From Eledone cirrhosa (Eukaryota), in assembly GCA_964016885.1 (NCBI GenBank), contig OZ024744.1:5952001-6016000 (forward strand): 64,000 nt of DNA, in the 5' to 3' direction. How positions within the stretch are numbered: the first letter of the stretch is position 1; each line of letters starts with the position of its first letter. The position numbers and the translations under genes were made by a program. This document shows positions 862 to 32,724 of the stretch, one piece after another. The notes beneath the pieces are model-generated. The model was not told the origin of the DNA, ran no database searches, and saw only the letters and a list, made by a program, of their open reading frames with translations.

Positions 862-3094
862 TTTATCTCGAACCAGCAGTGCCCCCACCACCCCACCCCC
901 CCACCTCGGTAGCACTGCCAAACTGGGGATTTTTGGAAATTATCCATTGTCCCCGGCTCGAAAGTCCTCCGGAACAGACTGGTAAGTTCGACTTCGTCGA
1001 GAGTGTAAGTTCCACTGACCACATTTCCCGCCCTGTAGATGGCAGTGAGTGCCTGGCAACATTCCAGATGCTAGTCATCCAGTCTCGGTCTCTTCTTTGC
1101 GCAGGATTGCAGTTGAGTCGAAGAAACGAACTGCGGAAAGACTCGTCTGACAAACGGCGACCACACCTGTTCACCGTTTAGGCAGAATATCTGGAGATGC
1201 AACAGCCTCAGCGCGTGTCTGCGCATCATTAGCCATGGTGTTCCCAGCCGTCCACGTAGAGGGTGCTGGCAGCAGATGGACTGCCTCACCAGTGGAACCT
1301 AACCCCTCCACAAGAATTTGAAGAGGAACCGCTCCAAGATGGCGATGCGCGAACGGGGGCAAGGGACGACGGTCAGACGGTAGTAGATGACGGACGCGAT
1401 GTAGGTGTTCGCCACCTCCGCCCGACCTTTCTGTGATAGCTTTCTCCCAGCCCATTTCTGGGAGAGACTGGCTACCCTGCCCGTCACCTCGTCTCAATTC
1501 TTATCCACCTGGAGGTCTGGCCTTAACCAAACCCTTAGCAACTTTACCGGTCCGTCCGTCCAGCGCCTAACGACGCTGTTGGACGGCATGGACTTGCCTG
1601 TCCATGTGCCGAGTTGCAAGCCCACCGACTTTCCCGGGTTAAGTTTTGCTCCCGCCAACCTTTCATATTCCTCCAATAAGTTGCGGACCACCTCGATTTC
1701 TAAGTTGTCCGACACCATCACGGTGATATCGTTCGCATAAGCCGACACAGCCTTTCCGCGTCCCGGATCGAGCGGGATGCCCTGCAACAGCTCCAGCTTC
1801 CGCAGTAAAGGCTCGAGTGTCAATACGTACAGAAGGGAGGAGAGAGGGCACCCTTGACAGACCGATCGGGAGACCTGAAACGGTTCCGAGAGGTGGCCAT
1901 TAATTTTGACCGCCGAACAGGTGCCGCTGTGCATTGCAGCGATCCAGCTTCTGAAGACGGGGCCGAAGCCAGCCGCCTTGAGGACAGCCTCCAGGTACCG
2001 ATGGTCGACCCTATCGAATGCTTTCGACTGATCTAAATTGAATAGATCCCCACCGAAGCCAGGTTTACACCCAACCCTCTCTATGATGTATCGCTTTAGG
2101 TGAAGGCTATCGTGTATGGACCTGGTTGGGATTGCGCAACTTTGCACCTCCCCAACCAAATCCCCGACGACAAGCGCTAACCTCTTCGCTAAAACCCTGG
2201 CCAAAATCTTAAACTCTGTGTTAGCAGAGTTATGGGCCTGAAATTGTCTAATGTATCCCTCTTGTTCTCGTCTTTCCTTATTAGCGTCACTACGCCCCGG
2301 CTCACAGAACAGAGAATACTCCCGTTTTGGTGCCAGTTGCAGTAGAGGGCTTCGAGGAGATTGGAGAACATGTCCGGCATATTTACGTAAAGCTCGTAGA
2401 GCAGACCATCAAATCGCCTCATGCAGCCGACAAGGGAATCCTGAATCTCGGCTGAAGTAATCGGCCTTTCGCAGCGCCCAGCGACGGCTGTCGAGAGTTG
2501 CGGCAAGCCATAGAGGTAGGGACTGAGGTCCGCCACCACCTTTGACCCGCCACTTCCCCCGAACAATCGAGCAAAATGTTGGCGAAAGGCCTCACACATC
2601 CGCTTGGAATCCCTCAACTCGTGTCCATCTCGGTCCGTCATAGACCGAATCGTGGTTTTATTACCACGCTGCGCCTCTGCCACGCGGGCCCATCGAACAG
2701 CTTTGGTTCCCTCGTTTCTCAGAGCACGCGCCTTAACTCTGACAATGCAACCTTCGTGTTTCGCATTGAAGAAATGGTCTAATGCCATTCTCGCCGCTAG
2801 CACATCAGTTGCAATGCCACTACCAATAGCCTCGTCTAAATTATCTACCAACACCCCCTCCTTTCTATTTTTCTCTAACGCTACTTCTTTGCTAAACTCT
2901 ATCGACATTACTCTAATCTCTCTTTTGAGAGCCCCCCACCATCTATTGTTGACGACTCCCCCTGTCAACTTTTTCTTAACAAAATTGTTGACCTGGTCCC
3001 TGTAAGCCTTACGTGCCGGAAATGACATTTTCAGCTTCCAGTAACCAGGTCCTAAGCTACGCGTCTTATCCAGGTCAACCATACAGATCACAAA
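862..3094 (-). pseudogene. T1 ORF2 remnant (end of EN/linker plus RT), frameshifted; APE domain deleted
   Basis: Pieces are ORF-track 2189..3178 (FVIC..GPGYWKL..), 1494..2204, 1299..1487, 1071..1289 and 720..1022 (..WQCYRG..). The degenerate catalytic motif reads YAND. Confidence 0.9.
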
Positions 3095-4414
3095 CTGGTT
3101 TATGTTTTTATTGATGTGTGTATTTTTGGGGGTAGGGGGCATTTGACAACTTTCCTCGTTTCCACCCTGGCTGGTCAATGTTGGTGGTGGTCTTTCTATT
3201 GGTGTTGTTGTTGGTAGTTTTGCCGGTGGTGGTGTTAGTTGTGGGCCTTGCCCCGGCGTCGGCAGCAGTGGAGCCCTTCAACCCCTTGCATCTTTCATCA
3301 GTTGATGGCAGAAGGCTCGCAAATGTGTTTTTTCCCCCACAAACAAAACAATGCGGCCATTAGCCCTCGGTCATTATATGAATGACCGTCCCATTCTGAA
3401 GGCGGATGTGGTCCGGGATTGTCTTCACATTCTCAGGCCTTATCTGGAGAAGGATCTCCAGGTCAACCCCGGAACAGTCCTCTCTGGTCGTTCTGGTAAC
3501 TTCTATAGGGACGGTATCCGTCCCCTCCACAATCACACATCCCAGAAGCCACCACATGTCAAGTCCTGGTGGGATTCTGGGAATGCGGAGAGGGGCCGTT
3601 CTTTTTCCCATGTGGGAGGGGTACATTATGACCTTGCTGGTTTTGCAAGGAGTCATGGCGTATTTCATAGCGAGGGCTTCTGACTTGAAGATCACCGAAA
3701 TGGTGCCGTACTGTCTGCCACTCGCTATGTATTCGGTGTCTTCTCTGATGCACCTCAGCGCGACTTCGACATCTGCTTGTGGAATTAAAGCCGCCCTTTT
3801 GGTTTGTGCTGAGATGCATCTATAATGCACCGTTCTGCGCTCCACTGCCTCAATAGCTTCTACTGGGACAGTTAAGTTGGCCCAAGTTTGCTCTTGCTTG
3901 ATGAGCTTCCAGGTCTGGGCCAACTTTTCATCTATGTTTGAGAGGTCCATGTTGAAGCATGGCCTCTTTTTTGCTGCTGCCGCAGCGAAAGTGATGTTCT
4001 TGTTGTCGTTGATCTTGTTGGTGTTGGAGGTGTTGTTGTTGTTGTCGTTGTTCTTGTTGGTGTTGTTGTTATCACTGTCGCTGTTATCATTGTTGTCTTT
4101 GGTGCCACCGTTGTTCTCGGTGCAGTTGGTATTGTTGATGTTGATGTTGTCGCTATTTGTTTTCATGTTAGTGGTGTTGATATTGTTGTATTTGTTTTGT
4201 TTTTTTTGTTATCTGTATTTTCGTTGTCACTGTTTAGGTCATTTTATTCAAAATTAGAGTTCTCAGTGTTGTTATCATTGCTGTCTTTGTTTACCTTGTT
4301 TGTGGTGGTGTTTGTGTTATCAATTTGTGTTAATTTCGCCGTAGCGCTCCTCTCAACCTTCACGTTGTTGTCGCACGACAGCAGACATATCGCTGGGGAG
4401 CGTGGATCAACCAT
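3095..4414 (-). pseudogene. T1 ORF1 (gag-like) remnant with Asn-rich N-terminus and zinc knuckle
   Basis: ATG at 4414 (MVDPRSP..). ORF 3360..4166 is homologous to ORF1 of T2/T3 (GRQYGTISVIF, LQNGTVIHIMTEG). A CFVCGGKKH knuckle follows across a lesion. Confidence 0.75.
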
Positions 4415-4619
4415 GTTTTTGTTTTTTTCGATAATTTTTTTAAATGTAAAAGCGTTCAAATATTTGGGCCAAAAGGCCCAAATATTATTATTTCCCCTTC
4501 GCAGGGCAAAGTCCAAGGGCTTATATCCATCACACAACAACAAAGAATTCAATAAATAAGTGTTGACAGGTAAATAAATAAACTTACGAGACCGAGTAAA
4601 AAGACGTCTGTTCAGACTC

Positions 4620-4637
4620 AATAATAATAATAATAAT
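4620..4637 (+). repeat. (AAT)6 target microsatellite between the T1 5' end and the T2 3' end
   Basis: Read directly. Confidence 0.95.
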
Positions 4638-4926
4638 TTTTTTATTGGCCACAAGGGCTGACATCAAGAAAAACGTTACAGACGGTACAGGACGGTACGA
4701 GATGGGTTTTGTGCGTGTAAAGATTTTTATTATTTATATAAAAAAGAAAAAAAAAACATAAAACATATATATATATAAACAATACAAATGAAAATTGAAA
4801 CAATGAAAAATTCCCCAATAGGGGGGAAACCTCCGAGGGTTACTCATGGCGAAAACCACACAAAAGACCACGGCCACCCTGACCACCAGGGCAAGTGCCC
4901 TCTCTCAATTTTTACCATTTCTCAAA

Positions 4927-7900
4927 CTACAGACGTATATTCAGAGTGGTTCCGTTTACTCGGACCATTCTCGCTACATTCACCCACCTTTCAACAAACT
5001 TGCTAGAAGGCAGCACTTGCCTCTCCACCCTGATTTTCCTCGTCAAGTGAAACTTGAAAAAGTTAATTAGGGATTCGCCAAAGAGGAAAGTGTCTGTCTT
5101 TAACCCTTTCAACCTTGTCCGCCACACAATCTCTTCGGCGAGACCATCTGCACAATGGACTCAGTCGACAACCGGATCAGTCCCACACGTGACAGCAACT
5201 GTTCGACATAGATCCACAAGTCAGCAATGCTCGGGCACTGAACGAGAGCGTGCACGACGGTTTCGTCGCTCTGCGCGCATCTCGGACAGGCTCGGCTGAC
5301 GGCACTTCCGTGCCTGTAGAGCTTATCTCTAACCGGCAGCGCTCCCCGGTAGCACGGCTAGGCCAGGGATTTTTGGAAGATATCCATAGGCCCTGGGCTG
5401 AAAGTTCTCCGGAAGAGAGCAAAAAGCTGATCTTCTTCGACGCCCAGGATCTCTCCGAGAAGGTCGTCGCTCTTCCCCTCCACTAGTCCTCTATAGAACG
5501 CCGAGGTGGATGTTCCACCGATACTGGTGCCCAGCTGGCAGAGGGCCATGAGCGCCTGGAGATATTCCAGTTTCCAAGCGCTATCCCTCGGTCTTTTCCT
5601 GTCCCAGGACTGCAGTTGGGTCAAGGAGACGAGCTGTGGGAAAACGTGCCTGGCGAACGGCGACCACACCTGTTCACCGTCAAGGAAGCACCGGAGATGT
5701 CGCAGCCTCAGCGCATGTTTGCGCATCATCAGCCATGGCATCCCCAGTCCTCCACGCAACGGGTGTTGACAGCAGATGGATGCTCTGACCATTGGAGCGC
5801 GTCCCTTCCACAAAAAGCGGAAGAGGAGGCGCTCCATTTTGGTGAGAGTTGGGCCGGGTTAAGGGACGACGGTGAGGCGGTAGCAGATGACGGATGCGAT
5901 GTACGCATTCGCCACTTCCGCCCGGCCTTTCAGGGACAGCTTCCTCTCGGCCCATTTCTGGGTGAGGGAGGCCACCCTGCTCGTCATCTCGTTCCAGTTT
6001 TTCTCCATCTGGAGGTCTCGTCCGAACCAGACCGCGAGCAATTTAACCGGTCCGTCCGTCCAACTCCCCACGACGCTGTCAGACGGCCTGTACTTGCCTC
6101 TCCTGGTGCCGAGCTGCAAGCCCACCGACTTTTCCTGGTTTATCTTTGCTCTTGTCACTGCTTCGTATTCCTTGCAAGCGGTGCCAAGCATCTGGACGTG
6201 TCTGGTGCTCGACACCACCACGGTGACGTCGTCGGCGTAAGCCGACTCGGATATCCCTTATCCTAGTTCGCGTGGGACGCCCCTCATCGCCCCCAGTTTG
6301 TGCAGTAACGGCTCGATAGCCAATACGTACAAGAGGGACGAGAGGGGGACAAGCCGGGTGGTCTGAGCGCATGATGCTGAACGGCTGCGACAGGTGACCG
6401 TTCACCCTCACAACTGAGCAGATGTCGCTGTACATCGCAGCGATCCAACCCCTGAAAGCGGACCCGAAACCGACCACCTCGAGGACCGCCGCCAGGTACC
6501 GATGGTCGACCTTATCGAATGCTTTGGATTGATCCAAGTTGATCAGGGTCCCACCCGTGCCAGATTCCTTAAACACCCTCTCTATGATGTATCGCATGAA
6601 GTGGAGGTTGTCGTGTATGGTTTGTCCGGAATGGCGCATATCTATGCCTCTCCCACCAGACCCTTGACGACAAGCACCGACCTCGTTGCTAACACCTTGG
6701 CCAAAATCTTGAACTCTGCGTTTAGCAGGGTTATGGGTCTGAAGTTATCAATAACATCCCCCTTTTTCGGGTCTTTTCTCAGCAGCGCCACTGCTCCCCG
6801 GCTCACAAAACTGGGCATGCTCCCGTTCTGCTGCCAGTTGTAGTAGACGACTGCTAAGAGATCACCGAACAAGTCTGGCATAAATGCATAAAGCTCGTAG
6901 GGCAGACCATCCAAACCTGGCGATTTACCCCTCGTGCAGCTAGCCATCGCTTCCCGTATTTCACCGGTTGTTATTGTCTTTTCGCAACACTGTGCTGCGG
7001 TCGTCGAGAGCAGAGGCAGTCCATCGAGGTATGCACTGAAGTCCATACCCGATCCGGCCCGCTGTTACTGCAAAGTGCTGCTGAAAAGCTTCCAACATCT
7101 GCTCGGGTTCAAGCAACACGCGCCCGTTTTGATCAGACAAAGACCGAATTGTGGCTTTGTTGCCACGTCGCGCCTCTGCCACCCGGGCCCATTGGACGGC
7201 TTTTGTCCCCTCGTGTTTCAGAGCACGCGCTCTAGCTCTGACAGCGGATCCTTCGTGTTTTGCGTTGAAGAATTGGTCGAGTGCCAATCCCGCCGCAAGC
7301 ACGTCGGTTGCGATGCCTGTCCTAAACGCCTCTTCTAGCTTTCTGACTAGCTCTCCCTCTACTCTATTTTCCTCTATCACTACTCCTTTGCTAAACCTAA
7401 TCGACTCTACTTTAATTGCCCTTTTCAGGGCGAACCACCACCTGTTGTTGACGACCGCTCCTGTCAACGCCCAATTAACTAATACGCTAATCCGGTCTCT
7501 GTAGGCTTTGTGCGCCGGGAAAGACGTGTTCAGCTTCCAGTAACCAGGCCCTTGTCTATGAAGTCTGTCTATGTCGATCTCACAGATCACAAATTTGTGG
7601 TCTGTGTAGTCGACTATTTTAAATTGTGGACAACTTATACTAGCCTTATCTAGTTCTCTGCAGAATACCCTATCTAGGTACGATCTGGATGACGCGATGC
7701 GGTTTGTCCATGTCCACATTGGCACATTCGGGTGATCCAGTCGATACCTGTCAGACAGTTCAAAACGTCTGAGCAGGTTGGTGAGGCTCTTGCACCCTCC
7801 TCCCCTATCCACTAGCCCCACACAATCCCAGCGTGCATCCAAGATACCGTTCCAGTCGCCCACTAACACTAAAGAGCGGGACGTTCCAAGAAAGATCTCT

Positions 7901-8277
7901 AGACGTCGAAAGAAATCTGGCCGTCCTGTCCCTGTCGAGGTATAGACGGCTACTAGCCTGAAAGCGTTGCCTTCGTTGCCGCTTACGTCCAGTACCACCG
8001 ACTTACCTTCTGGGTCCAGGAAGATGGTCCGTATGGCGAGACCCAAGCCTTTCCGAAACAACACAGCTACTCCGCCCCCCGCTCCCGGACGGCTCGGAGA
8101 TGCATACACCTCGTAACCGTCGAAGATCGGTGCGAAAGCCTGCGTTTCAGAGATTCTCGTCTCGCTTATGGCCACCACATCTATGTTTAGTGACCTGAGG
8201 TCTTTAAGCAAGTGACCCTGCTTCCAAACCGAGCTCAAGCCACGCACGTTTCCACTTCCGATCCTGAAAACGGCCAT
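4927..8277 (-). pseudogene. T2 ORF2 (APE endonuclease, RT, C-terminal Cys motif), multiply frameshifted
   Basis: The likely true start is MAVFRIGSGNVRG at 8277. Fragments 6961..8313, 6642..7046, 6079..6639, 5859..6221, 5358..5837 and 4927..5127 are colinear with the T3 ORF2. Confidence 0.92.
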
Positions 8278-8310
8278 GTTGGGTGAGGAACGGGGCAAGT
8301 GAGAAAGAAT

Positions 8311-10412
8311 CACTTACCTTGATCGTCTGGTGAAGGGACCGTTGAATCGTCCCTTCGGCTGGTTGTCGGCTCTTCTGTGAGTATATCCGAATATACTCTC
8401 CGGTTGAGTGTCCCTCCTAGGTCTCTGAAATCACCAACTGCGTTGGGGAATTTCTTTTTGAAGTTTGCTTATTGTGTCTGTGATATTCTTACCACTCTTA
8501 TGTTCGTTGGTGTTTTGATTGGTGCTGGTATTATGTAGTCGTGCTGTGAAATGTCTGTGTGTTCAATTATGTAAGTCATTAGTTTCTTGTTGTGTGTATT
8601 TATTGCTGTGCATTTCTTTTGCTGGGGGTGGGGTGTGGTTTTGCTATTTTCTTGTCGTTTCTGGGTGTGTGTGTTTTGTTGTTGTGTTTGCGATGTTGGT
8701 GCTTGTGGTGGGGGTGTTGAAGGTGTTGTTGTTTACGGTGGGGCTGCCGCCGGTGGTGATGGTGGTGCTAGTGTGGGTGGTGATGGTGTTGGTGGTGTTG
8801 CTGATGTAAGTCTCTTTGCAGTAGCCTTCACCCTTTTTTCCTTTCTTCCCTCCCTTTTCGAAGGCGACGTTGCGCTTCTTCTGAGTGTGTGCCTTCTTGC
8901 GACCTTTTGCCCTCTCCCACCTCACACTCCATATCTGATTCTGTGAGGTCGGGGAGGGGTACCAGCTCCACTCTTTCACTTGTTGTTGTTGGTGATGTTT
9001 GCAGTGGAGTCTCTGTTGCAGCTGCATTTGGTATTACTGTTGTTGTTGTTAATACTTCCACTGCTGCTGCTGTTTTTGATTTCCGTGGCGTGGGTGTGGG
9101 TGCCACGGACCTATCGTTCCTGGTTGCCGCTTGTCCTGTTGCTGATAGCCGTGGAGCCGGTTTCGGAAGGAGGGGGGGGTTTCTCCTTTCTCAGGGTCTT
9201 CTCGTTGCAGAAGGCCCTGAGGTGAGTCTTCGATCCAGAGCGAAAGCATTTCGGGCGTTTACCCTCAACACTTATGGGCAGTTGAGTGCCGTTATCGAAG
9301 TCTATCACATCCGGGATAGCTTCGATGCACTCCTGGTTGGTTTGGATTAACATCTCAATGGAGGTGCCGACCCAATCTTCTCTTACTTTTTTCTGTACTT
9401 GCAGTACAGTTGTTTTGTCCTCGATTCCGACGAGGACAGACGCGGCCAGCCAAGAAGGGGCCATCCCTGGGGGGGGGGGGCGTGGGTCAGTTTGACCCTC
9501 ACAATTTTTTGCCCGCAGTAGGAGGACACCAACACCATTTCCTCGCTCCTTAGGGTCACTAAGGATTGAGCCTTTGCCTCCTGGGGTGTGACAAAAAGCA
9601 CGTCTACGGTGGCATATTTCTTGCCTCGGGTGATGTGCGTTTTCCGCTGCCACACAGACCCTAAGGCTTTTTTGTATTTGAGCCTCTGTGGCTCTTTCAA
9701 CCCTACGGGATTTTGTGCTTACTGTACGGTACGTGACCGTACAGTGCTGTTGGGTTTCAAAAAATGTTTCGGCTGCCTTGCAGATTGTTCGGTGTCCGGT
9801 TTTCGTCACCATCTTCTTCGCTTCATCTAATTCCTCATTTGTTATGAGGATGGTTTCCAGGTTCTTTGCGATACCTGCAAAGGAGATTGGTTTTTCTTTG
9901 CTTCTGTTGTTGTTGTTGTTGTCGTCAGAGCTGCTGTTACTTTTGTTGTTGCTGCAGGTACTACGACTACTGCCGTCGCCGCTGTTGCTGTGTTTGTTGT
10001 TGTTGTTGGTGCTGCTGCTGTTGTTGTTGCTGTTGCTGCTAATGCTGCTGTTGTTTATGCTGCTGCTGATGCTGTTGCGGCTGCTACTGTTGTTTTCATT
10101 GTCTCTGTTGCTGCTGTTGCTGCTGTTATTACGGCTGCTACTGCTATTATTCCTGACGTCAGACGAATGAAATGGGTTTTCATATTTCCCGCACACCTTT
10201 TTCGTCGTTGTCGTCGTCGTCGTGGAGAAATCTTGCACGCTTTGCACGTGATTTTTCTTTTCTGTCGTCGCTTGCGAAAGAGAAGGGAGGGAGAGAGACA
10301 CATTTAAAGAAGGGAGGGAGAGAGACAATCTTCTCTCTGCTGTAGTGACGATTGAGGAAGAAGAAGACGGAATGAGTGGGAGTGACCTATGAAAATTCTT
10401 TTTCGTAGCCAT
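8311..10412 (-). pseudogene. T2 ORF1 (gag-like), frameshifted
   Basis: ATG at 10412 (MATKKN..), then a Ser/Asn microsatellite-derived tract, KPISFAGIAK, RKTHITRGKKYATVDVLF and a degenerate knuckle CFRSGSKTHLRAFC. Confidence 0.85.
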
Positions 10413-10628
10413 GTTTTTTTTTTTGTTTAAAATAAATATTGGGCACAAAACTCCAATAAGCGGTTATTTAACCCCGAAAAGCCAAATAACGGGCAGAAAG
10501 ACCCCTCTCACGAGGAGGAGGGTGTTTTTGTCTACAAGTTGGTTAAAGTTTTAAACAATTTACAATTGTTATAGCGGTCAAAATTTACAATACCTTACAG
10601 AGCCGAGCCTCCGTCAACCATAGCATTC

Positions 10629-10672
<44 letters not shown>

Positions 10673-10697
10673 GAAGAAGAAGAAGAAGAAGAAGAAG
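10629..10697 (+). repeat. Compound microsatellite (AAT)14(AAG)9
   Basis: Read directly. Confidence 0.95.
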
Positions 10698-10901
10698 GAA
10701 GGGAAGAAGACGCACGAGGTGGTAGAACGTCACGAAATTGCTCCCGTAAGTTTTTTGATTTTTAACATATTTAAATCAATTGTGAAAGAACAATTCTTAG
10801 CACAAATGTTGCATAAAGGCACCGAATGAGGTCCCATAAAGTTTCGGATCCATATTATATTGTTGTATCGCTCAAATATTCAATTTTGTATTATATATTT
10901 T

Positions 10902-13900
10902 GTATTCAAAAAAAGAAAATGGTTATAAATGGAACAAAACACCCTCTGTCTACACTATATAGAACAGCGGCAATTTCAATTTCACCAACACCAGAAACTT
11001 GATACACTACCTATCCCATCACACTAAATATAATGGCAACTTCACCAGCATCATAATAATAATTACTATTATTATTGTCTCAAATTTAAAAAAATGTTTA
11101 ATTCAAATTTTACGGGAATATGTCAACACAAAATATAATGAAAATATATATTAAACATACGAACACAAACTCATAGATACTATATCAGTAACCACAACAC
11201 CACCGCTGCCACCACCCCACCACATCCATCATCGCCGCCACCACTCATTCAATGCTACTGACACTATTCCCCTGTTAACTTGAGATAGAAAAGGGAAGGT
11301 GGCGGTAGCACTAGACAAGAGAGAGGCTAGCAAAAGATATAAATAGATTGACTTGGTGACCTTGCCACGGACAAACGTCTACATCAACAATTATGGGACT
11401 GCAGGCTCACCCCTTCCTCACCAACAATATAAAAAGCCCCGGCACCACCACCGACATAGCCAGCAGCAATAACAGCCAACTACAACAAAAAGTATATTAT
11501 ATTATTGTAATGCACTGGGTGATTGCTGGCCTTGTGCCTGGAGTGGAGACAATTATTAATAATTTCATTCTTAAGCCACGCAATGCTCACATTAAGGAAC
11601 CACTCATGATAATAACAATTAAAAAAAAACAACAAAAAGAAAACCGCGTGACCAAGAAATACCGGGATGGCGGCCGGCGGGGAATAGCCATGTCTCTAGG
11701 GGAGAACGACCCCTCTAGTCTTGGTTGACACTCGTTCTAGAAGTGGTAACACGAAATGATTACCCCTTGGCGGATAAGGATAAAACGCGACAAAATAAAG
11801 TAGATGTCTAATGATGAAATCTCATACCGGATCGGCCGTCACCCGGGTAAAAAAGGGCCGCGTCCCTCAGAGAGGAACCAGACTGGGGTCGAAAAATCAG
11901 CTAATGGTTCAAACCTTCCCATCACTTCGGAGTTGGAGACCTCCCATAACCGGAATACTCCTACTGTTGGCCCTCTATGCTCACCACCAAGAAATCCAAA
12001 GAAAAAGAGAGAAAAATGGTCAAGGGAAGATAATAAAGAAGTCCTTGAGGCTTTCTACACTGCCATGTACTACCCATCAAATACATCGAATACAGAACAG
12101 ACATATATCAACTGGAAAAAGAAACATCCCGAAAACAGAGGCTATATTGATAGTAACAAACTAGCCAATATACGAAGAAATATTGTAAGAAAAAAGTTAC
12201 TAACTGATATAGAAATTGATCAGATCAAGCTAGTAGCACAAAGTCAGCGAAGGGAAAATGAAGCATGTGTCAGTGAAAACGAAGTAAACTGTAACACTTC
12301 GAATCCCAGGGTTGGGGCGGAATCACTGGCAACAGAACAAATTAAAGAAAGGAGCGAAAAAGTGGAGGGAGTGCATGCTCAGGATGAAACTCCAAATGAA
12401 AATAATGAGATCGTAAATGATAAAGAAATGAATGAGAATGAACTTGCCAACTTGAAGGATGAAATTATGATCGAATGGATGAAAATGAAAGAATCTGACA
12501 TGGGGGAACGAGACACCCTCCCTAAGATCCAGAACTCCAAACAGAACCAAAAGATAATACACCAGACTAACATAATTCTCAAAAACATTATCATCACAAA
12601 CAAACTAAACATTACTGACTTAAATCATCTCTATTATGCATCGGCTAAAGTCACCACTCACTTATGTGGAGTGAAGATGAAAAAACAAAGGAATTCCCAC
12701 AAGAAATCTACTTGGCAAGATAACATCAATCGCCAAATAAACCTTCTCCGATCTGACATAGAAATTTTAACAAACTATAAAGTAGGTGAACATGTTAAAC
12801 AAACTAAACTTAGAAAATTGAAAAAAAAGTACAGTATAAGATCAACATGTGACATAGACATGCTGATAGAAACAATCAAGCAAAAAGTGTCGGCCAAAGC
12901 TGCTCGTATAAGGCGCTTTGAAAAACGATCTAGATTCTATAAGGACAATAATATGTTCAAAAACAACCAAAGAAACTTCTACAGAAAAATTGGTAAGTCA
13001 ACAATAACTGCTAAATCAATACCACCCTAGGAGGAAGTGCAAGAATTCTGGGAAAAGATCTGGGCCGAAGAAAAAGTTCATAACATACATGCCCCATGGA
13101 TAGACAGACAAATGAAAGAAACAGCTCACCTTGAAGAACAAACATGGGAAAATATAACAGTTGAACAGCTGCGCTTGGCTCTAAGAAAAACCAGCAAATG
13201 GAAATCCCCAGGAAAAGACAAAATACAAAACTTTTGGATAAATGCATTCACAGAGTCTCATGAGCTGTTAGCCCAACTTTACAATGAAATAGTTAAGGAG
13301 CCAGAAAAGATACCATCATGGCTAGTTAACGGCATTACATTCCTGCTACTGAAGAATGATGAGACAAACAATCCCAAAAATTACAGACCGATAACCTGCT
13401 TGACCACAATGTATAAAATTTTAACATCAGTCCTAACTGAATACACATATGACCACCTGATAACAAATGACCTATTTCCCATTGAGCAGAAAGGGTGTAA
13501 ACGAGGCTCATATGGCTGTAAGGATCAGCTTCTGGTTAACAAAATGATACTGGAAGATTGTCATAATAGACACAAAAATCTATCGATTGCTTGGATAGAT
13601 TATAAAAAAGCATTTGATAGTTTGCCACACAGTTGGATTGAAAAATGTTTAGAGATTTTCAAAATATCCCCCGTTGTCAGGAGGTTTTTGTCATTCAGTA
13701 TGAGGACATGGAGAACGACACTCCTTTTGAATAGTGAAACAAAATCACTGGAAGCTGGAGAAGTTAACATTAATTGTGGAATTTTTCAGGGTTACTCTTT
13801 ATCACCGCTTTTATTCTGCATCGCACTTATACCATTAAGTAAAATGCTCAATGAAACAAAACATGGATATAGAGTCTATGACAAAACCATTAATCACCTG

Positions 13901-15594: not shown

Positions 15595-15621
15595 AATAAT
15601 AATAATAATAATAATAATAAT
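15595..15621 (+). repeat. (AAT)9 shared by the RA1 3' end and the T3 3' end (tail-to-tail)
   Basis: Read directly. Confidence 0.95.
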
Positions 15622-15864
15622 GTTTTCTTTATTAACCACAAGGGTTCACATAAAGTAGACATTAAGGACAGTACAGGACAATACAGGACGGTACAAATGA
15701 GCATTTCTGCGTGTAAAAAAACAGAGGTTGAAATAAAATAACAAAGAAAAATTCCCCAATAGGGGGGAGACTTCCAAGGGACATTTGTGGAGAAAGCCCA
15801 TTAAAAGACCACAGTGGCCCTGACCACCAGGGCAAGTGCACTCTCCCAGTTTTCCACCTTTAAT

Positions 15865-19284: not shown

Positions 19285-19318
19285 GTTGAAAAGGAGTGGA
19301 AAAGATGGGAAAGACCAC

Positions 19319-21305: not shown

Positions 21306-21514
21306 TTTTTTTCAAAGAAATTTTTTGATAATAATAAAAGTTAAAATTTTGGGCACAAGGCCCCAATCTTTTTAGGTGTCCTTTTCGGAAAACAATGTAT
21401 GTGTGCTTATAAACAGTTAACAATAAAATTTTCCATAAATGGCAATTTTTAAACAAACGGAAATAACAAACCTTTGCGGAGCTCACGATAATACGATTTC
21501 CTACGTAGGTCGCC

Positions 21515-21553
<39 letters not shown>
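21515..21553 (+). repeat. (AAT)13 between the T3 5' end and R4 family B (head-to-head)
   Basis: Read directly. Confidence 0.95.
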
Positions 21554-21659
21554 TGTGCAAAGTAAACAATTTACCACATTCTGAGAAATGGTATGAGCAT
21601 AGGCCAGAGGCGGTGATGGAGAACAATCAGGTGAAGGTGCTGTGGGATTTTAGGATACA
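21554..21659 (+). mobile_element. Internal RLE-region fragment of R4 family B fused to the 5' end of RB1
   Basis: Encodes CKVNNLPHSEKWYEHRPEAVMENNQVKVLWDFRIQ and is nearly identical to about 25641-25746. Confidence 0.9.
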
Positions 21660-24600
21660 AAACAACAAAACCAAAGCAGCACAGCAACAACAGCAAAAAA
21701 TGAGAAAAACAAACAGAGAAAAACAAAAACAAAAAAAAACCCCCCAAAACGTAAAGAAAATAAGAATGAAGAGAGAAGCAGGCGGACGGACAGAGAAGAG
21801 GGGGGAAAAAGTAAAACTTAAAAAACAAAAACTAAGTCAGACATTCGAACACTACATTACAATGAAACTTATGCTTATTCATTTTTGGGGCCCTTTCTGC
21901 CTGTGTGTTTGTTTGTTTATGTGTGTTCGTATACAGCGTGGTGATAATGCCACACAAGGGCCAAGTGGAATGGCGGATCCACAGATGGCTATGTAACCAT
22001 ACATTCGCCAATCCTCGATAAGAGTGTTTAAATATCGAACATAAACAGTTCGAATAACGGTGAAATGGAGACTAGAACGTCATGTGACAGACTCTCACCC
22101 AACAGGTGCCCCCTGGCTCAGCAGCAGGAACCTGACTGTCAACCAAATACTGCTGATGTTGGAGGAAAGAGAAGAAGGAAAGGGGCCAGAACCAACTGGA
22201 CGAAAGAATTGAATAGAACTGTTATGCAATGTTACCTGAAAAGTAACCCCAAGGAGAGGGGCTACAGGAGATGGATGCATAATATCTGGAACGAGATTGG
22301 TTTATTTAAATTAGATGAACAAAAATTGGCCGGGCAGGCTCGGGTAATAAGAACTAATGGGTGGATAAGCGAGCTGGAACTGGAGGAACTGAGCAGAGAG
22401 AATGGCTTGGAGATGGCGGGTGTAGTATGCCAGACAAGCGAGCCAGTGGGAAATGAAGGTGAAGAGGTCCTGAGAACGGAGGAACCACCCGAAGCAGACA
22501 ATGATCTGAATACTGAGATAAATAATACCTGGAACAGAGATACGGCCACTGAGGAGATGAATGCTGACGGGCTAGGACAAGATTCGGTTGACATTCTAAA
22601 TTTAGTGGTAGATGAATTGAACAATGATAGTGGGAGACCTATGAACCTAAGATTTCTAGACAGGAAAAAGTTAAAAGAAACAACAGCTAAGGTAAACAAA
22701 GTCATCCCATACCTTGAGGCGAGGAGCCTTCACCAGTGCAACAATATCCTCAAAGCAACAGCAAATACGGTGAGGAAACTACTTGGTATAAAAGCGAGAG
22801 GAAACAACAGACAAGAAAGAGCAGAGCCATGGTGGAAGAAGCGACTGAGTGGGCAAATCGGGGAAATGAGAAATGACATAGGAAAGCTTGAGTCACTACT
22901 GAATGGGACACTAAAAAACATAGGCACTAAAAATAGACTGGAAATAAAATACAAAACTAGGAGGAAAAAGCTAAATATTATCATAGAGGAACTGAAGCAA
23001 CGCATTGTAGCAAAGAGTGCAAAAATCAGGCGATACGAGAACAGAGTCAGTCAGTATAAACAGAACCGCATGTTCGACAACAACCAGAAGATGCTGTTTG
23101 GACAGCTTGAGGGGAAAGAAAGAGGCAACGACTTGATCCCTGGGGCGGAGCAAACTAAAACATTCTGGAGAGGAATATGGGAGCAGGATGTTAGACATAA
23201 TGTCCAGGCAGGGTGGATTGAGACAGTACAGAGGGAGATCGGTGAGCAGGCACAACAACAGACTGATTTGAGTATCACAGTTGAAACTCTTAAGGGGCAG
23301 ACCAAAAAACTAACCAACTGGAAATCACCTGGCCCAGATGGTGTGCAGGGGTATTGGATTAAACATTTAACATCCCTCCACCCGACTGACGGCCATGTTC
23401 AATGACTGCTTGGTGTCGGGTGAGGTACCAGAGTGGTTGACAAAAGGTACCACAGTTCTGATAATGAAAGACCGAATCAAGGGTAATGATGTTACCAACT
23501 ATAGACCTATCACATGTCTGTCCGTAATGTGGAAACTGTTGACGAGCATTGTGTCTGAGGAAATCTACCATCACCTCCACACAAACAACTTGTTACCGGA
23601 CGAACAGAAAGGATGCCGAAAGAAGTCACGTGGTACAAAGGACCAGTTACTTATTGATAAGATGGTAATGGGGAATTGCAGAAGGAGACACACTGATCTT
23701 GCCATGGGATGTATAGACTACAGAAAGGCATTTGACATGGTGCCTCATTCTTGGATCACCAAAAGCCTAGAGATCTTCAGGGTGGCAGATAACATCAGAC
23801 AGTTGCTGGGCAGGAGTATGGGGTCCTGGGAGACAGAGTTGACATCAACTGGAGTATCCTTGGGAAGCGTGAAGATCAAGAGAGGTATCTTCCAGGGAGA
23901 TAGCCTGTCCCCTCTATTGTTTGTCCTTGCCCTGATGCCCTTGACCATCATGCTGCGAAAAGTGAGAGCAGGATACAAGTTGGGAAGGGGAGAGCTTACC
24001 ATCAATCACCTCCTCTTCATGGACGATCTTAAGCTCTTCGAGAAAAGTGAGAAGGAGTTGGATGTGCTTGTTGACACTGTCCGTATTTTCAGCAGTGATA
24101 TATGTATGCAGTTTGGTATTGGTAAATGTGGAGTCATTGTGATGAGGAGGGGTAAATTGAGCAGAAGCAACGGAATCCTGGTGAGATGATAAAGGAATTT
24201 GATACTGACGAATACAAGTATTTGCGTGTTCTGGAGGCTGATGACATCAAGAACAAAAAAATGAAGGAATTGATAAGATCTGAATACATTCGGAGAATAA
24301 GGAGCGTATTAAAGTCACATCTGAACAGTAGGAATGCCATAAGTGCAGTAAATTCCCGAGCTGTGTATATTATTAGGTACAGTGCGGGAATTCTGAGATG
24401 GAATGTTGCTGAACAAAAAGAAATGGATAGGAAGACTAAGAAGCTATTGACTATCTACAACATGTTCCACAAAAGGAGTGATGTCGATAGACTCTACTTA
24501 AGGAGAACTGAAGGTGGAAGAGGTCTTATCAGCATAGAGGACTGTGTTCAGATGGAGAAAAACAACCTACACAAATACGTGACTGATAGTAGGGAGCCAA

Positions 24601-25511
24601 TGCTCAGAATTGTACTGGAAAATAGACCAGGGGATATCCAAGGAGGAAATAACAACAAGGAGAAACAGCAACCTTCATGAAAACTCCCTTCATACTACCT
24701 TCTTTGAGAAAACTGAATTCATAAATCCACAGACATGGAACTGGTTGAAAAGAGGAGACCTTAAAAAGGCTATAGAAGGAATGTTAATGGCTGCGCAGGA
24801 GCAGGCCCTCAAAACGAAGTGGTTGAAACACCATATTTACAAGGAGGAGGCTAGCCCACTGTGCAGGATCTGTGGAGAGAGAGAGGAGACTGTGGCTCAC
24901 ATTGTATCCGAGTGTAAGCACCTAGCCCAGACTCACTATAAGGGCTGGAGAGATGATGTGATGGGCAGGGTGATCCACTGGCATCTATGCAAAGTAAACA
25001 ATTTACCACATTCTGAGAAGTGGTATGAGCATAAGCCAGAGTCGGTGATAGAAAACGATCACGTGAAGGTGCTATGGGATTTTAGGATACAGACGGACAA
25101 GAAACTGGAACACAATAGACCTGACCTGGTCGCTTTGGACAAGGGAAAAAGATCGTGTCTGATTGTGGATGTGGCCTGCCCATTTGACACGAGAGTGCAA
25201 GAGAAGGAGAGGGAGAAAATTAAACGATACCAGGACTTAAAGTGGGAGGTAAAAAGGATTTGGAACTGCCATGAGGTCAAAGTGGTCCCGATTGTCATAG
25301 GCGCACTAGGTACTATCTCAAAGAGTTTCCAAGGATGATTAAAGAAAATTGGCCCCTTCACGCTTTTTGGAACGCTTCAAAAGACATGCTTGCTGGGAAC
25401 AGCAAGAACCCTCCGATACGTCATGAATATCTGAGGCTGCAGGTAGTGGCTTGATATTCATTTCAACAAACTTTCCAGTTAACTAACATCAATGACTGAG
25501 ACTCAAAGAAC
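21660..25511 (+). mobile_element. R4/Dong-clade RLE element, family B (copy RB1), near full length, decayed
   Basis: A-rich 5' region, ORF from 22065, and a 3' end running into (AAT)15. Confidence 0.92.
22065..25434 (+). pseudogene. RB1 polyprotein (RT, CCHC, RLE) with frameshifts, deletions and a stop
   Basis: Fragments 22065..23405, 23395..24189, 24186..24680 and 24610..25338. Motifs: [73 protein letters not shown]. Confidence 0.92.

Positions 25512-25557
<46 letters not shown>
25512..25557 (+). repeat. (AAT)15
   Basis: Read directly. Confidence 0.95.
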
Positions 25558-26163
25558 GGTGTCCGAGTGTAAACACCTAGCCCAGACCCACTATAAGGGC
25601 TGGAGACACGATGTGATGGGCAGGGTGATCCACTGGCACCTGTGCAAAGTAAACAATCTACCACATTCTGAGAAATGGTATGAGCATAGGCCAGAGGCGG
25701 TGATGGAGAACAGTCAGGTGAAGGTGCTGTGGGATTTTAGGATACAGACGGACAAAAAACTGGAACACAATAGACCTGACCTGGTGGTTGTGGACAAAGA
25801 AAAAAGATCGTGCCTGATTGTGGATGTGGCCTGCCTGTTCGACACGAGAGTGCAAGAGAAGGAGAGGGAGAAAATTAACCGATACCAGGACCTAAAGTGG
25901 GAGGTGAAAAGGATTTGGAACTGCCATGAAGTCAAAGTGATCCCGATTGTCATAGGCGCACTGGGGACTATCTCCAAAGGTTTCCAGGGATGGTTAAAGA
26001 AAATCGGCCCCTTCACGCTTTTTGGAACGCTTCAAAAGGCATGCTTGCTTGGAACGGCAAGAACCCTCCGATACGTCCTGAATATCTGAAGCTGCAGGTG
26101 GTGGCTTGATATTCAATCCAACGGACTTTCCAGTTAACCAACATCAATGACTGAGATTCAAGG
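25558..26163 (+). mobile_element. 5'-truncated R4 family B copy (RB2): RLE domain plus 3' UTR only
   Basis: ORF 25559..26089 (RHD, RPDLV..VDVAC, KINRYQDL) is paralogous to the RB1 3' end. Flanked by AAT tracts. Confidence 0.92.
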
Positions 26164-26196
26164 AATAACAATAACAATAATAATAATAATAATAAT
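26164..26196 (+). repeat. (AAT)n tract with two AAC variants (11 units)
   Basis: Read directly. Confidence 0.9.
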
Positions 26197-29100
26197 GTAT
26201 TCAAAAAAAGAAAATGGTTATAAATGGAAGAAAACACCCTCTGTCTACACTATATAGAACAGCCAAATAACAGCAATTTCACCAACACCAGAAACTTGAT
26301 ACACCACCTATCCCATCACACTAAATATAACAGCCAGATAACGGCAATTTCACCACCACCACCATCAATCCCGGCATGATAATAATAATTACTATTATTA
26401 TTGTCTCAAATTTTAACAAAATGTTTAATTCCAATTTTACGGGAATATGTCAACACAATATATATTAAACAAACGAACACAAACTCATAGATACTACATA
26501 TCACAAAACCCAGTAACCACAACGCCACCGCCGCCACCACCCCATCCATCATCTTGCTACCACTATCCCATCGCCGCCGCCACCACTCCTTCATTGCTAC
26601 CACCACTATTCCCCTGTTAACTTGAGAGAGAAAGGGGAAGGTGGCGGTATCACTAGACAAGGGAGAGGCTAGCAAAAGATATAAATAGATTGACTTAGTG
26701 ACCTGGCCACCGGCCAAACGTCAACATCAACAAATATGGGACTGCTGGCTCACCACTTCCTCACCAACAATATAAAAAGCCCCGGCACCACCACCGACAT
26801 AGCCAACAACAATAACAGCCAACTACAACAAAAAGTATATTATATTATTGTAATGCACTGGGTGATTGCTGGCCTTGTGCCTGGAGTGGAGACAATTATT
26901 AATAATTTCATTCTTAAGCCACGCAATGCTCACATTAAGGAACCACTCATGATAATAACAATTTAAAAAAAAAACAACGAAAAGAAAACCCCGTGACCAA
27001 GAAATACCGGGATGGCGGCCGGCGGGGAATAGCCGTGTCTCTAGGGGAGGACGACCCCTCTAGTCTTGGTTGACACTCGTTCTAGAAGTGGTAACACGAA
27101 ATGATTACCCCTTGGCGGATAAGGATAAAACGCGACAAAATAAAGTAGATGTCTAATGATGAAATCTCATACCGGATCGGCCGTCACCCGGGTAAAAAAG
27201 GGCCGCGTCCCCCAGAGAGGAACCAGACTGGGGTCGAAAAATCAGCTAATGGTTCAAACCTTCCCATCACTTCGGAGCTGGAGACCTCCCATAACCGGAA
27301 TACTCCTACTGTTGGGCCTCCATGCTCACCACCAAGAAATCCAAAGAAAAAGAGAGAAAAATGGTCAAGGGAAGATAATAAAGAAGTCCTTGAGGCTTTC
27401 TACACTGCCATGTACTACCCATCAAATACATCGAATACAGAACAGACATATATCAACTGGAAAAAGAAACATCCCGAAAACAGAGGCTATATTGACAGTA
27501 ACAAACTAGCCAATATACGAAGAAATATTGTAAGAAAAAAGTTACTAACTGATATAGAAATTGATCAGATCAAGCTATTAGCACAAAGTCAGCGAAGGGG
27601 AAATGAAACATGTGTCAGTGAAAACGAGGTAAACTGTAACACTTCGAACCCCAGGGTTGGGGCGGAATCACTGGCAACAGAACAAATTAAAGAAAGGATC
27701 GAAAAAGTGGAGGGAGTGCATGCTCAGGATGAAACTCCAAATGAAAATAATGAGATCGTAAATGATAAAGAAATGAATTAGAATGAACTTGCCAACTTGA
27801 AGGATGAAATTATGATCGAATGGATGAAAATGAAAGAATCTGACATGGGGCAACGAGAAACCCTCCCTAATTCCAGAACTCCAAACAGAACCAAAAGATA
27901 ATACACAAGACTAACATAATTCTCAAAAACATTATCATCACAAACAAACTAAACATTACTGATTTAAATCATCTCTATTATGCATCGGCTAAAGTCACCA
28001 CTCACTTATGTGGAGTGAAGATGAAAAAACAAAAGAATTCCCACAAGAAATCTACTTGGCAAGAGAACATCAATCGCCAAACAAACCTTCTCCGATCTGA
28101 CAGAAATTTTAACAAACTATAAAGTAGGTGAACATGTTAAATAAACTAAACTTAGAAAATTGAAAAAAAAGTACAGTATAAAATCAACATGTGACATAGA
28201 CATGCTGATAGAAATAATCAAGCAAAAAGTGTCGGCCAAAGCTGCTCGTATAAGGCGCTTTGAAAAACGATCTAGATTCTATAAGGACAATAATATGTTC
28301 AAAAACAACCAAAGAAACTTCTACAGAAAAATTGGTAAGTCAACAATAACTGCTAAATCAATACCACCCAAGGAGGAAGTGCAAGAATTCTGGGAAAAGA
28401 TCTGGGCCGAAGAAAAAGTTCATAACATACATGCCCCATGGATAGACAGACAAATGAAAGAAACAGCTCACCTTGAAGAACAAACATGGGAAAATATAAC
28501 AGTTGAACAGCTGCGCTTGGCTCTAAGAAAAACCAGCAAATGGAAATCCCCAGGAAAAGACAAAATACAAAACTTTTGGATAAATGCATTCACAGAGTCT
28601 CATGAGCTGTTAGCCCAACTTTACAATGAAATAGTTAAGGAGCCAGAAAAGATACCATCATGGCTAGTTAACGGCATTACATTCCTGCTTCCGAAGAATG
28701 ATGAGACAAACAATCCCAAAAATTACAGACCGATAACCTGCTTGACCACAATGTATAAAATTTTAACATCAGTCCTAACTGAATACACATATGACCACCT
28801 GATAACAAATGACCTATTTCCCATTGAGCGGAAAGGGTGTAAACGAGGCTCATATGGCTGTAAGGATCAGCTTCTGGTTAACAAAATGATACTGGAAGAT
28901 TGTCATAATAGACACAAAAATCTATCGATTGCTTGGATAGATTATAAAAAAGCATTCGATAGTTTGCCACACAGTTGGATTGAAAAATGTTTAGAGATTT
29001 TCAAAATATCCCCCGTTGTCAGGAGGTTTTTGTCATTCAGTATGAAGACATGGAAAACGACACTCCTTTTGAATAGTGAAACAAAATCACTGGAAGCTGG

Positions 29101-30940
29101 AGAAGTTAATATTAATTGTGGAATTTTTCAGGGTGACTCTTTATCACCGCTTTTATTCTGCATCGTACTTATACCATTAAGTAAAATGCTCAATGAAACA
29201 AAACATGGATATAACGTCTATGACAAAACCATTAATCACCTGTTCTACATGGATGACCTGAAACTATTTGCAAAAAATGATGAACAATTGCAAGGGCTAT
29301 TATCGACTGTGGAGCAGTTCAGTGATGACATTAAAATGGAGTTTGGACTAGATAAATGCGCCAAAGCAACGTTCACCAGAGGAAAGCTGCTGAAGAGTTC
29401 AGACATTAATGTTGATCGGGGGAACGTGATAAGAGAACTGGATCAAGAAAAAACTTACAAATATCTAGGTGTTTGTGAAGGAGACGGAATCAAGCACTCG
29501 ACAATGAGGGAAAGGATAAGGAAGGAATGTTACCGCAGAGTAAGAGCAATCTTAAGAACGGAATTGAATGCAAGGAATAGGATCGATGCCATAAACACGC
29601 TTGCCATACCAGTAGTAACCTACAGTTACAATGTCATCAACTGGTCAAGCACAGAGATCCGTAGGCTCGATACAAAAATTCGAAAATTCTTAACCATGCA
29701 CAGAATGCATCACCCTAAGGCAGATATAGATAAATATATCTCCCTAGGAAAGAAGGAGGACGTGGGTTAATCCAGTTAGATATTGAGTTGAAAACTGCAA
29801 CAATTGGATTATCTACATATCTAAGGGAATCACATGATTGGATGATCAAACTCGTTTTGAAACACGAAAGCATCAAAAGATCATACTCCATTAAAAAAGA
29901 TGCACAAAGATACAGTAATGGATTACAAATTTCAGAAGTCCCATTTACTGCTGAAATGGAAAACACGGAAAAAGCAAAGCAGGTAAAAGTAACTGCAAAG
30001 AAAGAACTGCTACAGAAACTGGCTAAGAAATGGCAAGAAAAGCCTCTGTATGGAAAATACCCAGAAAGAGCTAACAATCCTGATGTTGACAAAACTTTAA
30101 CCCATCAGTGGTTGGCATCCTCTGGACTGAAATCGGAGACTGAAGGACTGATTATATCAGCACAAGATCAGTGTCTGCCAACAAAAAATTACCAAGCCAA
30201 CATAATAAAAAATGGATGCAACCGATTATGCCGTGTATGTAAAAAACAACCAGAGACCATTGACCATATAATTTCAATGTGCAGTCCTATAGCTCCAACC
30301 GAATACCCAAACAGGCACGACAGAGCTGCACAATACATACATTGGATAATGTGTAAGCATTTTGACCTGCCCCATCAAAAGAATTGGTGGGAGCATCAAC
30401 CACCTTCCATACTTGAAAAAGATCATATCTCAATCTTGTGGAACTTTAGCATCCAAACAGACCGATAAATAGATGCAAATAGACCTGATATAATATTGAA
30501 GGACTTTAAAAAGAGGGTATGCCTGCTAATTGATATGTCCGTTCCAATAGACAAGAATGTATCTATAAAAACATTTGAAAAATTGAGCAAGTATAAAGAC
30601 CCGGAGATAGAAATTGGAAAAATGTGGAAATTGATAACTAAAACAATACCAGTGGTTATAGGCGCTCTGGGAATGATACGTAAGGGGTCTAATGATTACT
30701 TATCGCAAATCCCAGGAAACCCGCGTATAGGAGAAATACAAAAGATAGTACTAATGGGAACTGCCCATATACTAAGGAAGATTCTGTCAATATAAGTACA
30801 TCACAAGTCTAAACACTAAAGATGCATGTGTGTGTATGTATGTTCTTTCTTGAACATGGCGGACCTTGTTGTCTCTTGAGGTCACTGGTTGTGACTTGGT
30901 GATAACTCGTATGAACATAAAGCAAGATAAATGCCACTGT
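26197..30940 (+). mobile_element. R4/Dong family A, second copy (RA2)
   Basis: High identity by eye to 10902-15594. AAT tracts at both ends. Confidence 0.93.
27149..30795 (+). pseudogene. RA2 polyprotein with several stops and frameshifts
   Basis: Fragments 27149..27781, 28160..29770, 29788..30468 and 30496..30795. The lesions differ from those in RA1. Confidence 0.92.
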
Positions 30941-30961
30941 AATAATAATAATAATAATAAT
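30941..30961 (+). repeat. (AAT)7
   Basis: Read directly. Confidence 0.95.
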
Positions 30962-31790
30962 GCTTTCTTTATTAACGACAAGGGTTTACATAAAGTAGAC
31001 ATTAAAGACAGTACAGGACAATACAGGACAATACATGGGCATTTCTGCGTGTAAAAAAAACAAAAAACAGGATGTAACAAAAAATAACTATGAAAAATTC
31101 CCCAATAGGGGGAGACTTCCGAGGGACATTTGTGGAGAAAGACCATTAAAAGGCCACAGTGACCCTGACCACCAGGGCAAGTGCCCTCTCCCAGTTTTCC
31201 ACCTATAATTTACAGACACATACTCAGAGTAGGCCCATTCACTCGGGCCATTCTTGCCTCTCTCACCCATCTTTCAACAAAAAGCTGGGAAGAGAGTACT
31301 TCCCCCTCTACCCTGATTTTCCTTTTCAAATGAAATTTGAAAAAGTTAATCAGGGCATCACCGAAGAGGTAAGTGCTCGTCTTCAGCCCTTTCAAACGTG
31401 TCCACCATATTATCTCTTTCGCCATGGCCACCAGACAGATAAAAACTGCCTGCCCTTCCGGGCTAAAGGAGGAGGGTGGGGCAATCCTCACGATGGACTC
31501 AGATGATAGCCGGATCCGTCCTACACGTGACAGCAGGTGTTCGACATAAACCCACAAGTCAGCAATACTCGGACACTGGACGAGTGCGTGCAGGATGGTT
31601 TCGTCGCCCTATGCGCATCTCGGACATGCCCGGCTGACGGCACCTCCATGCCTGTAGAGTTTATCCCGAACTGGCAAAGCTCCTCGGTAGCACTGCCAGG
31701 CCAGAGATTTCTGGAAGTTGTCCATAGCCCCTGGCCCGAAAGTTCTTCCGAAGAGATTGGTTAGTTGATTTTCGTCGACGCCTAGAGTTT
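30962..31790 (-). mobile_element. 5'-truncated Tx1 family 3 copy (T3b): ORF2 C-terminus plus 3' UTR
   Basis: Homologous to 15622-16446. ORF 31210..31557 matches the ORF2 C-terminus. Confidence 0.92.
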
Positions 31791-32273: not shown

Positions 32274-32385
32274 ATTTATTACTATTATTATCATAATACT
32301 CCAGATAAAGTTCACTGTCGAGTGCTTCGTATCTGTTATGAACATAACTCTGGTGAATACTTATCAACAAAGCATATAACTCTTT

Positions 32386-32687: not shown

Positions 32688-32724
32688 TGTAATTTGAGTT
32701 ATTCGAATATTAATAATTGTTTCT

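Follow-up and report, generated by a model that had tools for sequence, protein, structure and literature searches.

Tx1-type and R4/Dong-type LINEs occupy AAT microsatellite tracts in opposite orientations in the genome of Eledone cirrhosa

An array of long interspersed nuclear elements (LINEs) joined by AAT tracts lies in a 64,000-nt stretch of the 3.0-Gb Eledone cirrhosa genome, hereafter the window (assembly GCA_964016885.1, contig OZ024744.1, C28:5952001-6016000, where C and L numbers are contig and fetched-locus labels). The array (862-31789) consists of eight LINE copies from five families and one small fragment, with seven AAT tracts between them. Two element types make it up. Copies T1 to T4 are Tx1-type elements, whose open reading frames (ORFs) encode an apurinic-type endonuclease (APE) and a reverse transcriptase (RT), with or without a zinc finger, on the minus strand. 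Copies RA1, RB1, RB2 and RA2 are R4/Dong-type elements, whose plus-strand ORFs encode an RT, a CCHC finger and the RPD..D..K motif of a restriction-like endonuclease (RLE). A preliminary description of this DNA, made from its letters alone, had placed all four copies of the first type on the minus strand and all of the second on the plus strand, and both this assignment and its positions for the seven tracts proved correct.

From left to right, the array opens with T1 (862-4619, minus; RVT_1, E 9e-19), which has an intact 5' end (ATT|G), a deleted nuclease region and no 3' end. An (AAT)6 tract (4620-4637) joins the 5' end of T1 to the 3' end of T2 (4638-10628, minus; Exo_endo_phos, E 4e-15), a full-length Tx1-type LINE with a frameshifted ORF2. 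The 5' ends of T2 and RA1 face each other across 10629-10697, made up of (AAT)14 (10629-10670) and (AAG)9 (10671-10697). RA1 (10698-15594, plus; RVT_1, E 2.5e-28) is a full-length R4/Dong-type LINE with a single ORF (11804-15454) carrying two in-frame stops, and it meets T3 tail to tail at an (AAT)9 tract (15595-15621). T3 (15622-21514, minus) is a young full-length Tx1-type LINE with an open ORF2 (15865-19284) and a frameshifted ORF1, its closest copies being 99.6% identical. Beyond its 5' end, an (AAT)13 tract (21515-21553) leads to a short internal RB fragment (21554-21659, plus; 92-95% to RB1/RB2) and then to RB1 (about 21660-25511, plus; RVT_1, E 1.4e-23; RPD..D..K motif), a near full-length copy with a frameshifted ORF. 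An (AAT)15 tract (25512-25556) separates the 3' end of RB1 from RB2 (25557-26163, plus), a 5'-truncated RB copy that begins in the tract and whose closest other copy is 99.3% identical. The next tract (26164-26196), which includes two AAC units, is followed by RA2 (26197-30940, plus), which lacks about its first 200 nt, likewise begins in the tract, and has a body 97.5% identical to RA1. Across an (AAT)7 tract (30941-30961), RA2 meets T4 tail to tail (30962-31789, minus), an older T3-family 3' piece that is 93.5% identical to T3 and has a best match elsewhere of 96%.

At the level of single junctions, the three intact Tx1-type 5' ends (T1, T2 and T3) all read (ATT)n|G, as had been claimed. The 3' ends described as AATAAA..(ATT)n are found in T2, T3 and T4, while that of T1 is lost. 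The count of eight copies from five families stands, with the addition of a ninth piece that had been missed, the internal RB fragment of about 105 nt, which is joined to the truncated RB1 5' end with no tract between them; by mechanism, this fusion is likely a template jump during reverse transcription. The array had further been described as lying in one microsatellite. The seven tracts are there; a common origin of all of them is no more than plausible, because neither outer edge of the array carries an AAT tract. On the left, T1 at 862 adjoins the 3' fragment of another LINE (640-861, minus), which we take from its translation to be RTE-like. On the right, the broken 5' end of T4 at 31789 meets, without a tract, the 20-nt terminal inverted repeat of an element resembling a miniature inverted-repeat transposable element (MITE). 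This MITE-like element (31790-32274) borders the array and is not a member of it; its terminal repeats (31790-31809 and 32255-32274) are perfect, and its left arm holds an insertion of about 225 nt with a 12-15-nt duplication. As a separate observation, AAT tracts beside these elements often run on as (AAG)n, in the window at 10671-10697 and elsewhere at L144, L164, L167, L172 and L176.

The flanks of related copies across the genome indicate that the tract is the target of these elements. For each genome query, 40 hits were scored from 473-2076 candidates and the best 30 were fetched with their flanks. At full-length Tx1-type 5' ends of the T1, T2 and T3 families (30 each, the window's own three copies included), (ATT)3 or more stands within 30 nt upstream in 90/90, and the exact junction ATT|G is present in 87/90. 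Downstream, in-phase ATT units follow the 3' end in 30/30 T3 and 30/30 T2 copies, and AAT units follow it in 30/30 RA and 30/30 RB copies, the shortest run being two units. Copies truncated at the 5' end also start at a tract, in 19/38 cases for Tx1 (p 1e-37) and 47/57 for R4 (p 2e-107), against a background of 0.32% (a 45-nt window containing (ATT)3 at 542 of 170,280 positions sampled from 600 kb of evenly spaced control DNA). Since truncated copies are unable to bring upstream sequence with them and still begin in the tract, the tract is a target rather than a tail. The claim that these Tx1 families are (ATT)n-specific therefore withstood its own preset check, which was for a majority of copies without (ATT)n at the 5' flank or for random orientation; neither pattern was found. 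A search of metagenome contigs yielded no relatives with flanks. Contigs assembled from four sequencing runs cover parts of both elements, outside the repeat junctions.

Orientation at these tracts is strict. In 274 distinct tracts from the first 180 loci, all 174 Tx1 junctions read ATT and all 197 R4 junctions read AAT, with no exception among the 371, so that the opposite orientation proposed for the window is borne out. Junctions not flagged as belonging to a query number 61 for Tx1 and 143 for R4, and at least 54 and at least 137 remain after removal of possible unflagged queries. LINEs integrate by target-primed reverse transcription. Given this, the orientation implies priming of Tx1 by the AAT strand and of R4 by the ATT strand, as had been proposed. 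At 25 of the 274 tracts a Tx1 and an R4 copy stand tail to tail, an arrangement that may give antisense read-through between the clades.

The locus had been presented as a self-extending landing pad. This put too much weight on a single site: the phenomenon is real and genome-wide, and the window holds one of many such arrays. LINE trains of 30-70 kb occur on several contigs, and the same orientation rule applies in four further arrays, chosen because hits clustered there (C4:350.71-350.78 Mb, C1:37.17-37.20 Mb, C1:255.49 Mb and C28:5.62 Mb). In the array on C4 (L271-L277, C4:350714001-350784000), no fewer than 11 Tx1 copies follow one another head to tail across about 66 kb. Eight of these units are chimeras of a T2-type 5' half and a T3-type ORF2, seven of them with frames of 1195-1204 codons, and one unit belongs to a further ATT family that starts with G. 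Identity among the eight is 98.4-99.9%, so that on C4 sequential insertion may have been supplemented by local duplication. In the control DNA, five of the six tracts of at least ten units abut these LINEs, and the sixth abuts a short interspersed nuclear element (SINE). Within the window, judged from sampled copies, T3, RA1 and RB2 look younger than the broken copies at the two ends of the array, which is what growth from inside would predict.

The names Tx1-type and R4/Dong-type are working names, based on domain layout and target. T3 ORF2 is an open frame of 1139 residues in which Exo_endo_phos, RVT_1 and zf-RVT exceed the curated cut-offs, with ORF1 upstream. Its closest solved structure is human L1 ORF2p (E 1.5e-51 over residues 4-855), followed by R2 proteins at 1e-19; among solved structures the T-type ORF2 thus appears nearer to L1 than to R2-type proteins, in a comparison whose listed matches did not include the wild-type R1Bm and TRAS1 entries. 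The Tx1 label itself is provisional, given on motifs and on target specificity. Protein searches with these elements returned 58 relatives with no named Tx1 among them, the sole named close match being a short stretch in an Octopus sinensis protein. By Kojima's definition, a target-specific family has one flank type in more than 20% of copies (PMC4494074), and in the T families the ATT flank is present at 90/90 5' ends, 60/60 3' ends and 19/38 truncated ends. RA1 and RB1 each have a single ORF with RVT_1 and with CxxC..H..C, RHD and RPD..D..K motifs, of which we take the first and last to be the CCHC finger and the nuclease. For the R4-type protein, R2 proteins are the only relatives among solved structures, and the (TAA)n target of the R4/Dong clade is seen at 60/60 3' ends and 47/57 truncated 5' ends. 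The clade has been reported to carry a divergent N-terminal Myb/SANT domain (PMC7998251) and a 5' HDV-like ribozyme (PMC3774820). Pfam gave no match in the N-terminal part of RA1, where no profile-profile search was run; for ribozymes, Rfam gave no match in 1-33000 and one strict descriptor gave none in seven 5' regions, neither search being exhaustive. By hand count, a full 1152-codon frame encloses about 40 of the 150 best nuclease matches, which marks the T3 family as young and probably still capable of movement. Separately, the motif GCTC(C/T)CGTAAGT is located 25-50 nt from the 5' start in both the T1 family (window 4583-4595, minus) and R4 (10740-10752, plus). It includes a splice-donor-like GTAAGT, its exact form is absent from the 600 kb of control DNA, and its presence in both clades would reflect either convergence or exchange of 5' ends.

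Taken as a whole, the array most likely arose from LINEs that inserted one by one into AAT tracts, the nuclease of each clade nicking a different strand; we give this reading a probability of about 0.8. It draws on flanks, phase, orientation, enrichment, copy independence and the other arrays, and from these we infer the nick positions, the molecule that reads the strand (nuclease, annealing RNA or chromatin) and the order of insertion. The Tx1-type ORF2, through its APE domain, would nick the AAT strand at T|A and prime there, which would give C|ATT as the 3' junction; the 5' junction ATT|G would come from a second cut, at T|A in the ATT strand. The R4-type protein, through its RLE domain, would nick the ATT strand. 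If the second strand is cut some way along the repeat, about six units would be duplicated; R4 adds further units copied from its own RNA tail, and one tract would in this way become two usable tracts. As long AAT tracts are scarce and mostly occupied already, new copies would land beside old ones and arrays would grow from inside. One of the 32 truncated copies inspected (L193) has a 19-nt interrupted tract duplicated on both sides, starting from the last base of the element, which fits a duplication of about six units with no added tail. This is the single readable target duplication among those 32 copies, and none was readable in 14 full-length copies with both flanks, since perfect repeats hide them. 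An identical AAC interruption in the tail of 8/30 RB copies indicates that part of the RB tail is RNA-derived.

Several observations weigh against this account. Young copies are over-represented among the best 30 of 40 scored hits. Among truncated copies, (ATT)3 is missing at the called boundary in 19/38 Tx1 versus 10/57 R4 (Fisher p 0.001); later breakage, two-unit tracts and imprecise boundaries of diverged copies explain some of the Tx1 misses, and weaker Tx1 specificity may lie behind the others. The two outer ends of the window array, as noted, are without a tract. L319, L321 and L323, full-length copies chosen because their 3' tracts are interrupted, have a long and perfect 5' tract in which the interruption is not duplicated. 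They do not suit plain target duplication; slippage, mutation after insertion or copying of 5' repeats from the RNA could each be responsible.

These same copies bear on the alternative that RNA sets both target and orientation, in that donor-derived AUU (Tx1) or AAU (R4) ends anneal to the strand nicked by a loosely specific nuclease and the 5' repeats are copied from RNA. It would account for 5' tracts that are long and perfect where the 3' tract is interrupted, for the AAC unit common to 8/30 RB tails and for the in-phase near-unit (ATC) in which Tx1 ends before the tract, and annealing of RNA to target has been described for SART1 and RTE (PMC7265360, PMC6007223). Truncated copies, however, cannot bring 5' repeats from RNA and still begin in tracts, the L193 duplication follows the last base of the element without an intervening tail, and the split between ATT and ATCT targets, described below, tracks a difference in a nuclease loop while the 3' termini are nearly alike. 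For TRAS1 and SART1, a nuclease swap has been reported to switch their targets (PMC7265360). An origin through RNA is thus improbable as the main cause, and RNA annealing and nuclease specificity can act together.

Two other explanations fare considerably worse. Many LINEs end in microsatellite-like tails (PMC6007223), and the tracts might accordingly be mere 3' tails that piled up passively in a neutral AT-rich region. Tails would not account for tracts at 90/90 full 5' ends and at truncated 5' ends, nor for the fixed phase and the lack of any orientation exception, and the 5' flank counts rule out a tail-only reading. It is about equally hard to credit that a few insertions were multiplied into the array by segmental or tandem duplication, despite the resemblance of 10901-16445 to 26196-31790 (95.2% identity across the 5.6 kb that take in RA, tract and T3/T4) and the near-identical units of the C4 array. 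The halves of the window have diverged unevenly (97.5% for RA, 93.5% for T), RA1 and T3 have relatives of 99.3% and 99.6% elsewhere, T4 has one of 96% on another contig, the paired copies differ in family-wide 3' end variants, and RA 3' and T3-family 3' ends are paired at 3/30 T3 loci. Uneven divergence and the closer relatives elsewhere largely rule out segmental duplication of the window halves.

The control DNA held diverged Tx1-type relatives with other flanks, and in 30 copies from a sister-family query the element is followed by (ATCT)2 or more in 20, (AT)4 or more in 6, other sequence in 4 and (ATT)3 in 0, where the background for (ATCT)2 is 0.16%. At the 5' boundary, (TATC)n is present in 11/20 longer sister-family stretches, the rest being without it or of unclear boundary (sister loci L287-L316 and L367-L386). 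The sister families are near-identical to the T families in their 3' terminus yet flanked by (ATCT)n, and the repeat therefore follows the family. Their ORF2 is about 66% identical to that of T3 and is open in L367 and L386. In a quick RT tree of 34 unnamed rows, the ATCT clade (SH-aLRT 99) joins T1-like ATT families (99) with T3 and T2-like rows outside, and this nesting suggests that the ATCT target is derived. The L1 nuclease has a hairpin loop with a role in target selection (PMC1950540). Aligned to L1 T192-S202, this loop reads xNRI(G/A)SSR in ATT families and xNRSG(T/S/I/Q)SR in ATCT families, a difference that is only a lead because other residues differ too and kin share residues. Two ATCT-family copies, L293 and L308, have unusually long flanking duplications of 50-100 nt.

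An abundant tRNA-like SINE has 72 matches in the 600 kb of control DNA, and its 3' terminal 30 nt resembles the Tx1 3' end. ATTA directly follows 31/35 SINE 3' ends, an exact upstream duplication of 9-18 nt accompanies 15/35, and all 32 SINE junctions at tracts are in the Tx1 orientation. Copies are found at L105 and L216-L270, in the window at 32718-32811 and in the RA 5' untranslated region at 11480-11570. The SINE may be mobilised by this Tx1 lineage and may seed new targets. A broader and tentative scenario, possible and on balance doubtful, is that a young Tx1 radiation exchanged its (ATT)n target for (ATCT)n owing to an altered loop tip (xNRI(G/A)SSR to xNRSGxSR), while the same machinery mobilises the SINE, whose ATTA-starting duplications would seed ATT tracts; SINE, Tx1 and Dong would then sustain one another, creating the very sites that they go on to fill.

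The remainder of the window holds repeats of other kinds. A 54-nt minisatellite of about seven copies lies at 33388-33755. A degenerate (CACCAA)n array occupies 36092-64000 and carries on through L281 (C28:6016001-6026000), for a length of at least 38 kb. It shows higher-order repeats, both of its strands contain very long frames free of stops, and it may be either a satellite or a mucin-like Pro/Thr exon.

How the APE nucleases of LINEs gain or change sequence specificity is an open question. Here the target differs between young families that are closely related (ORF2 about 66% identical) and have many frames still open, and a candidate loop difference goes with it, which makes a change of specificity directly testable. 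The dense LINE trains of this genome are explained as target saturation, and AAT markers in it call for caution, as they are often element ends. The mechanism of microsatellite targeting has been reviewed as poorly understood (PMC3812793).

Several parts of this system have known counterparts. RA and RB resemble Dong of Bombyx mori, being RLE-type single-ORF LINEs in (TAA)n, and look like ordinary members of the R4 clade, for which a (TAA)n target is reported in insects, molluscs and cnidarians (PMC7998251, PMC3812793). Among molluscs, R4-Dong has been reported almost only from cephalopods (PMC10294476), and Dong-R4 is described as abundant and recently active in octopus (PMC13282606). The octopus repeat papers list both clades, with no target analysis in the parts consulted (PMC13282606, PMC8967140, PMC9115989). 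The T families resemble Kibi, Koshi and the crocodilian Tx1 families, which are APE-type two-ORF microsatellite-specific LINEs with (TC)n, (TTC)n, (TTCC)n and (TTTC)n targets in vertebrates (PMC4494074); set side by side by description, the Tx1-type families of this genome differ from these in their (ATT)n and (ATCT)n/(AT)n targets and their invertebrate host. No Tx1 family specific for (ATT)n or (ATCT)n came up in a literature search; Repbase Reports, a 2004 survey and the target figure and supplements of PMC4494074 fell outside it, so that a prior description is possible.

As for a shared target, the preliminary description went too far, since opposite orientation in one repeat and the use of one target by APE and RLE elements each have published precedents. 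TRAS1 and SART1, R1-clade elements of Bombyx telomeres, occupy one simple repeat in opposite directions, and the TRAS1 nuclease nicks T|A (PMC7265360). Both are APE-type and confined to telomeres, whereas the microsatellites shared in Eledone are dispersed and are used by one APE-type and one RLE-type clade. In U2 snRNA genes, Keno (Tx1, APE) and Utopia (RLE) use unrelated nucleases at one target (PMC4640811); they share the same gene site with identical 3' flanks, whereas the elements described here use the two opposite strands of a repeat, and this repeat is still present after each insertion. Multimeric, non-nested arrays of unrelated elements formed through microsatellite targeting are reported for the SaTar elements of guayule and rice (PMC5907723), which are non-autonomous Mutator-like DNA transposons, while the array here is made of LINEs. 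Beside these systems, what appears new is the pair of Tx1 targets (ATT)n and (ATCT)n, the use of the first of them by Tx1 and Dong on different strands, and a probably recent switch of target.

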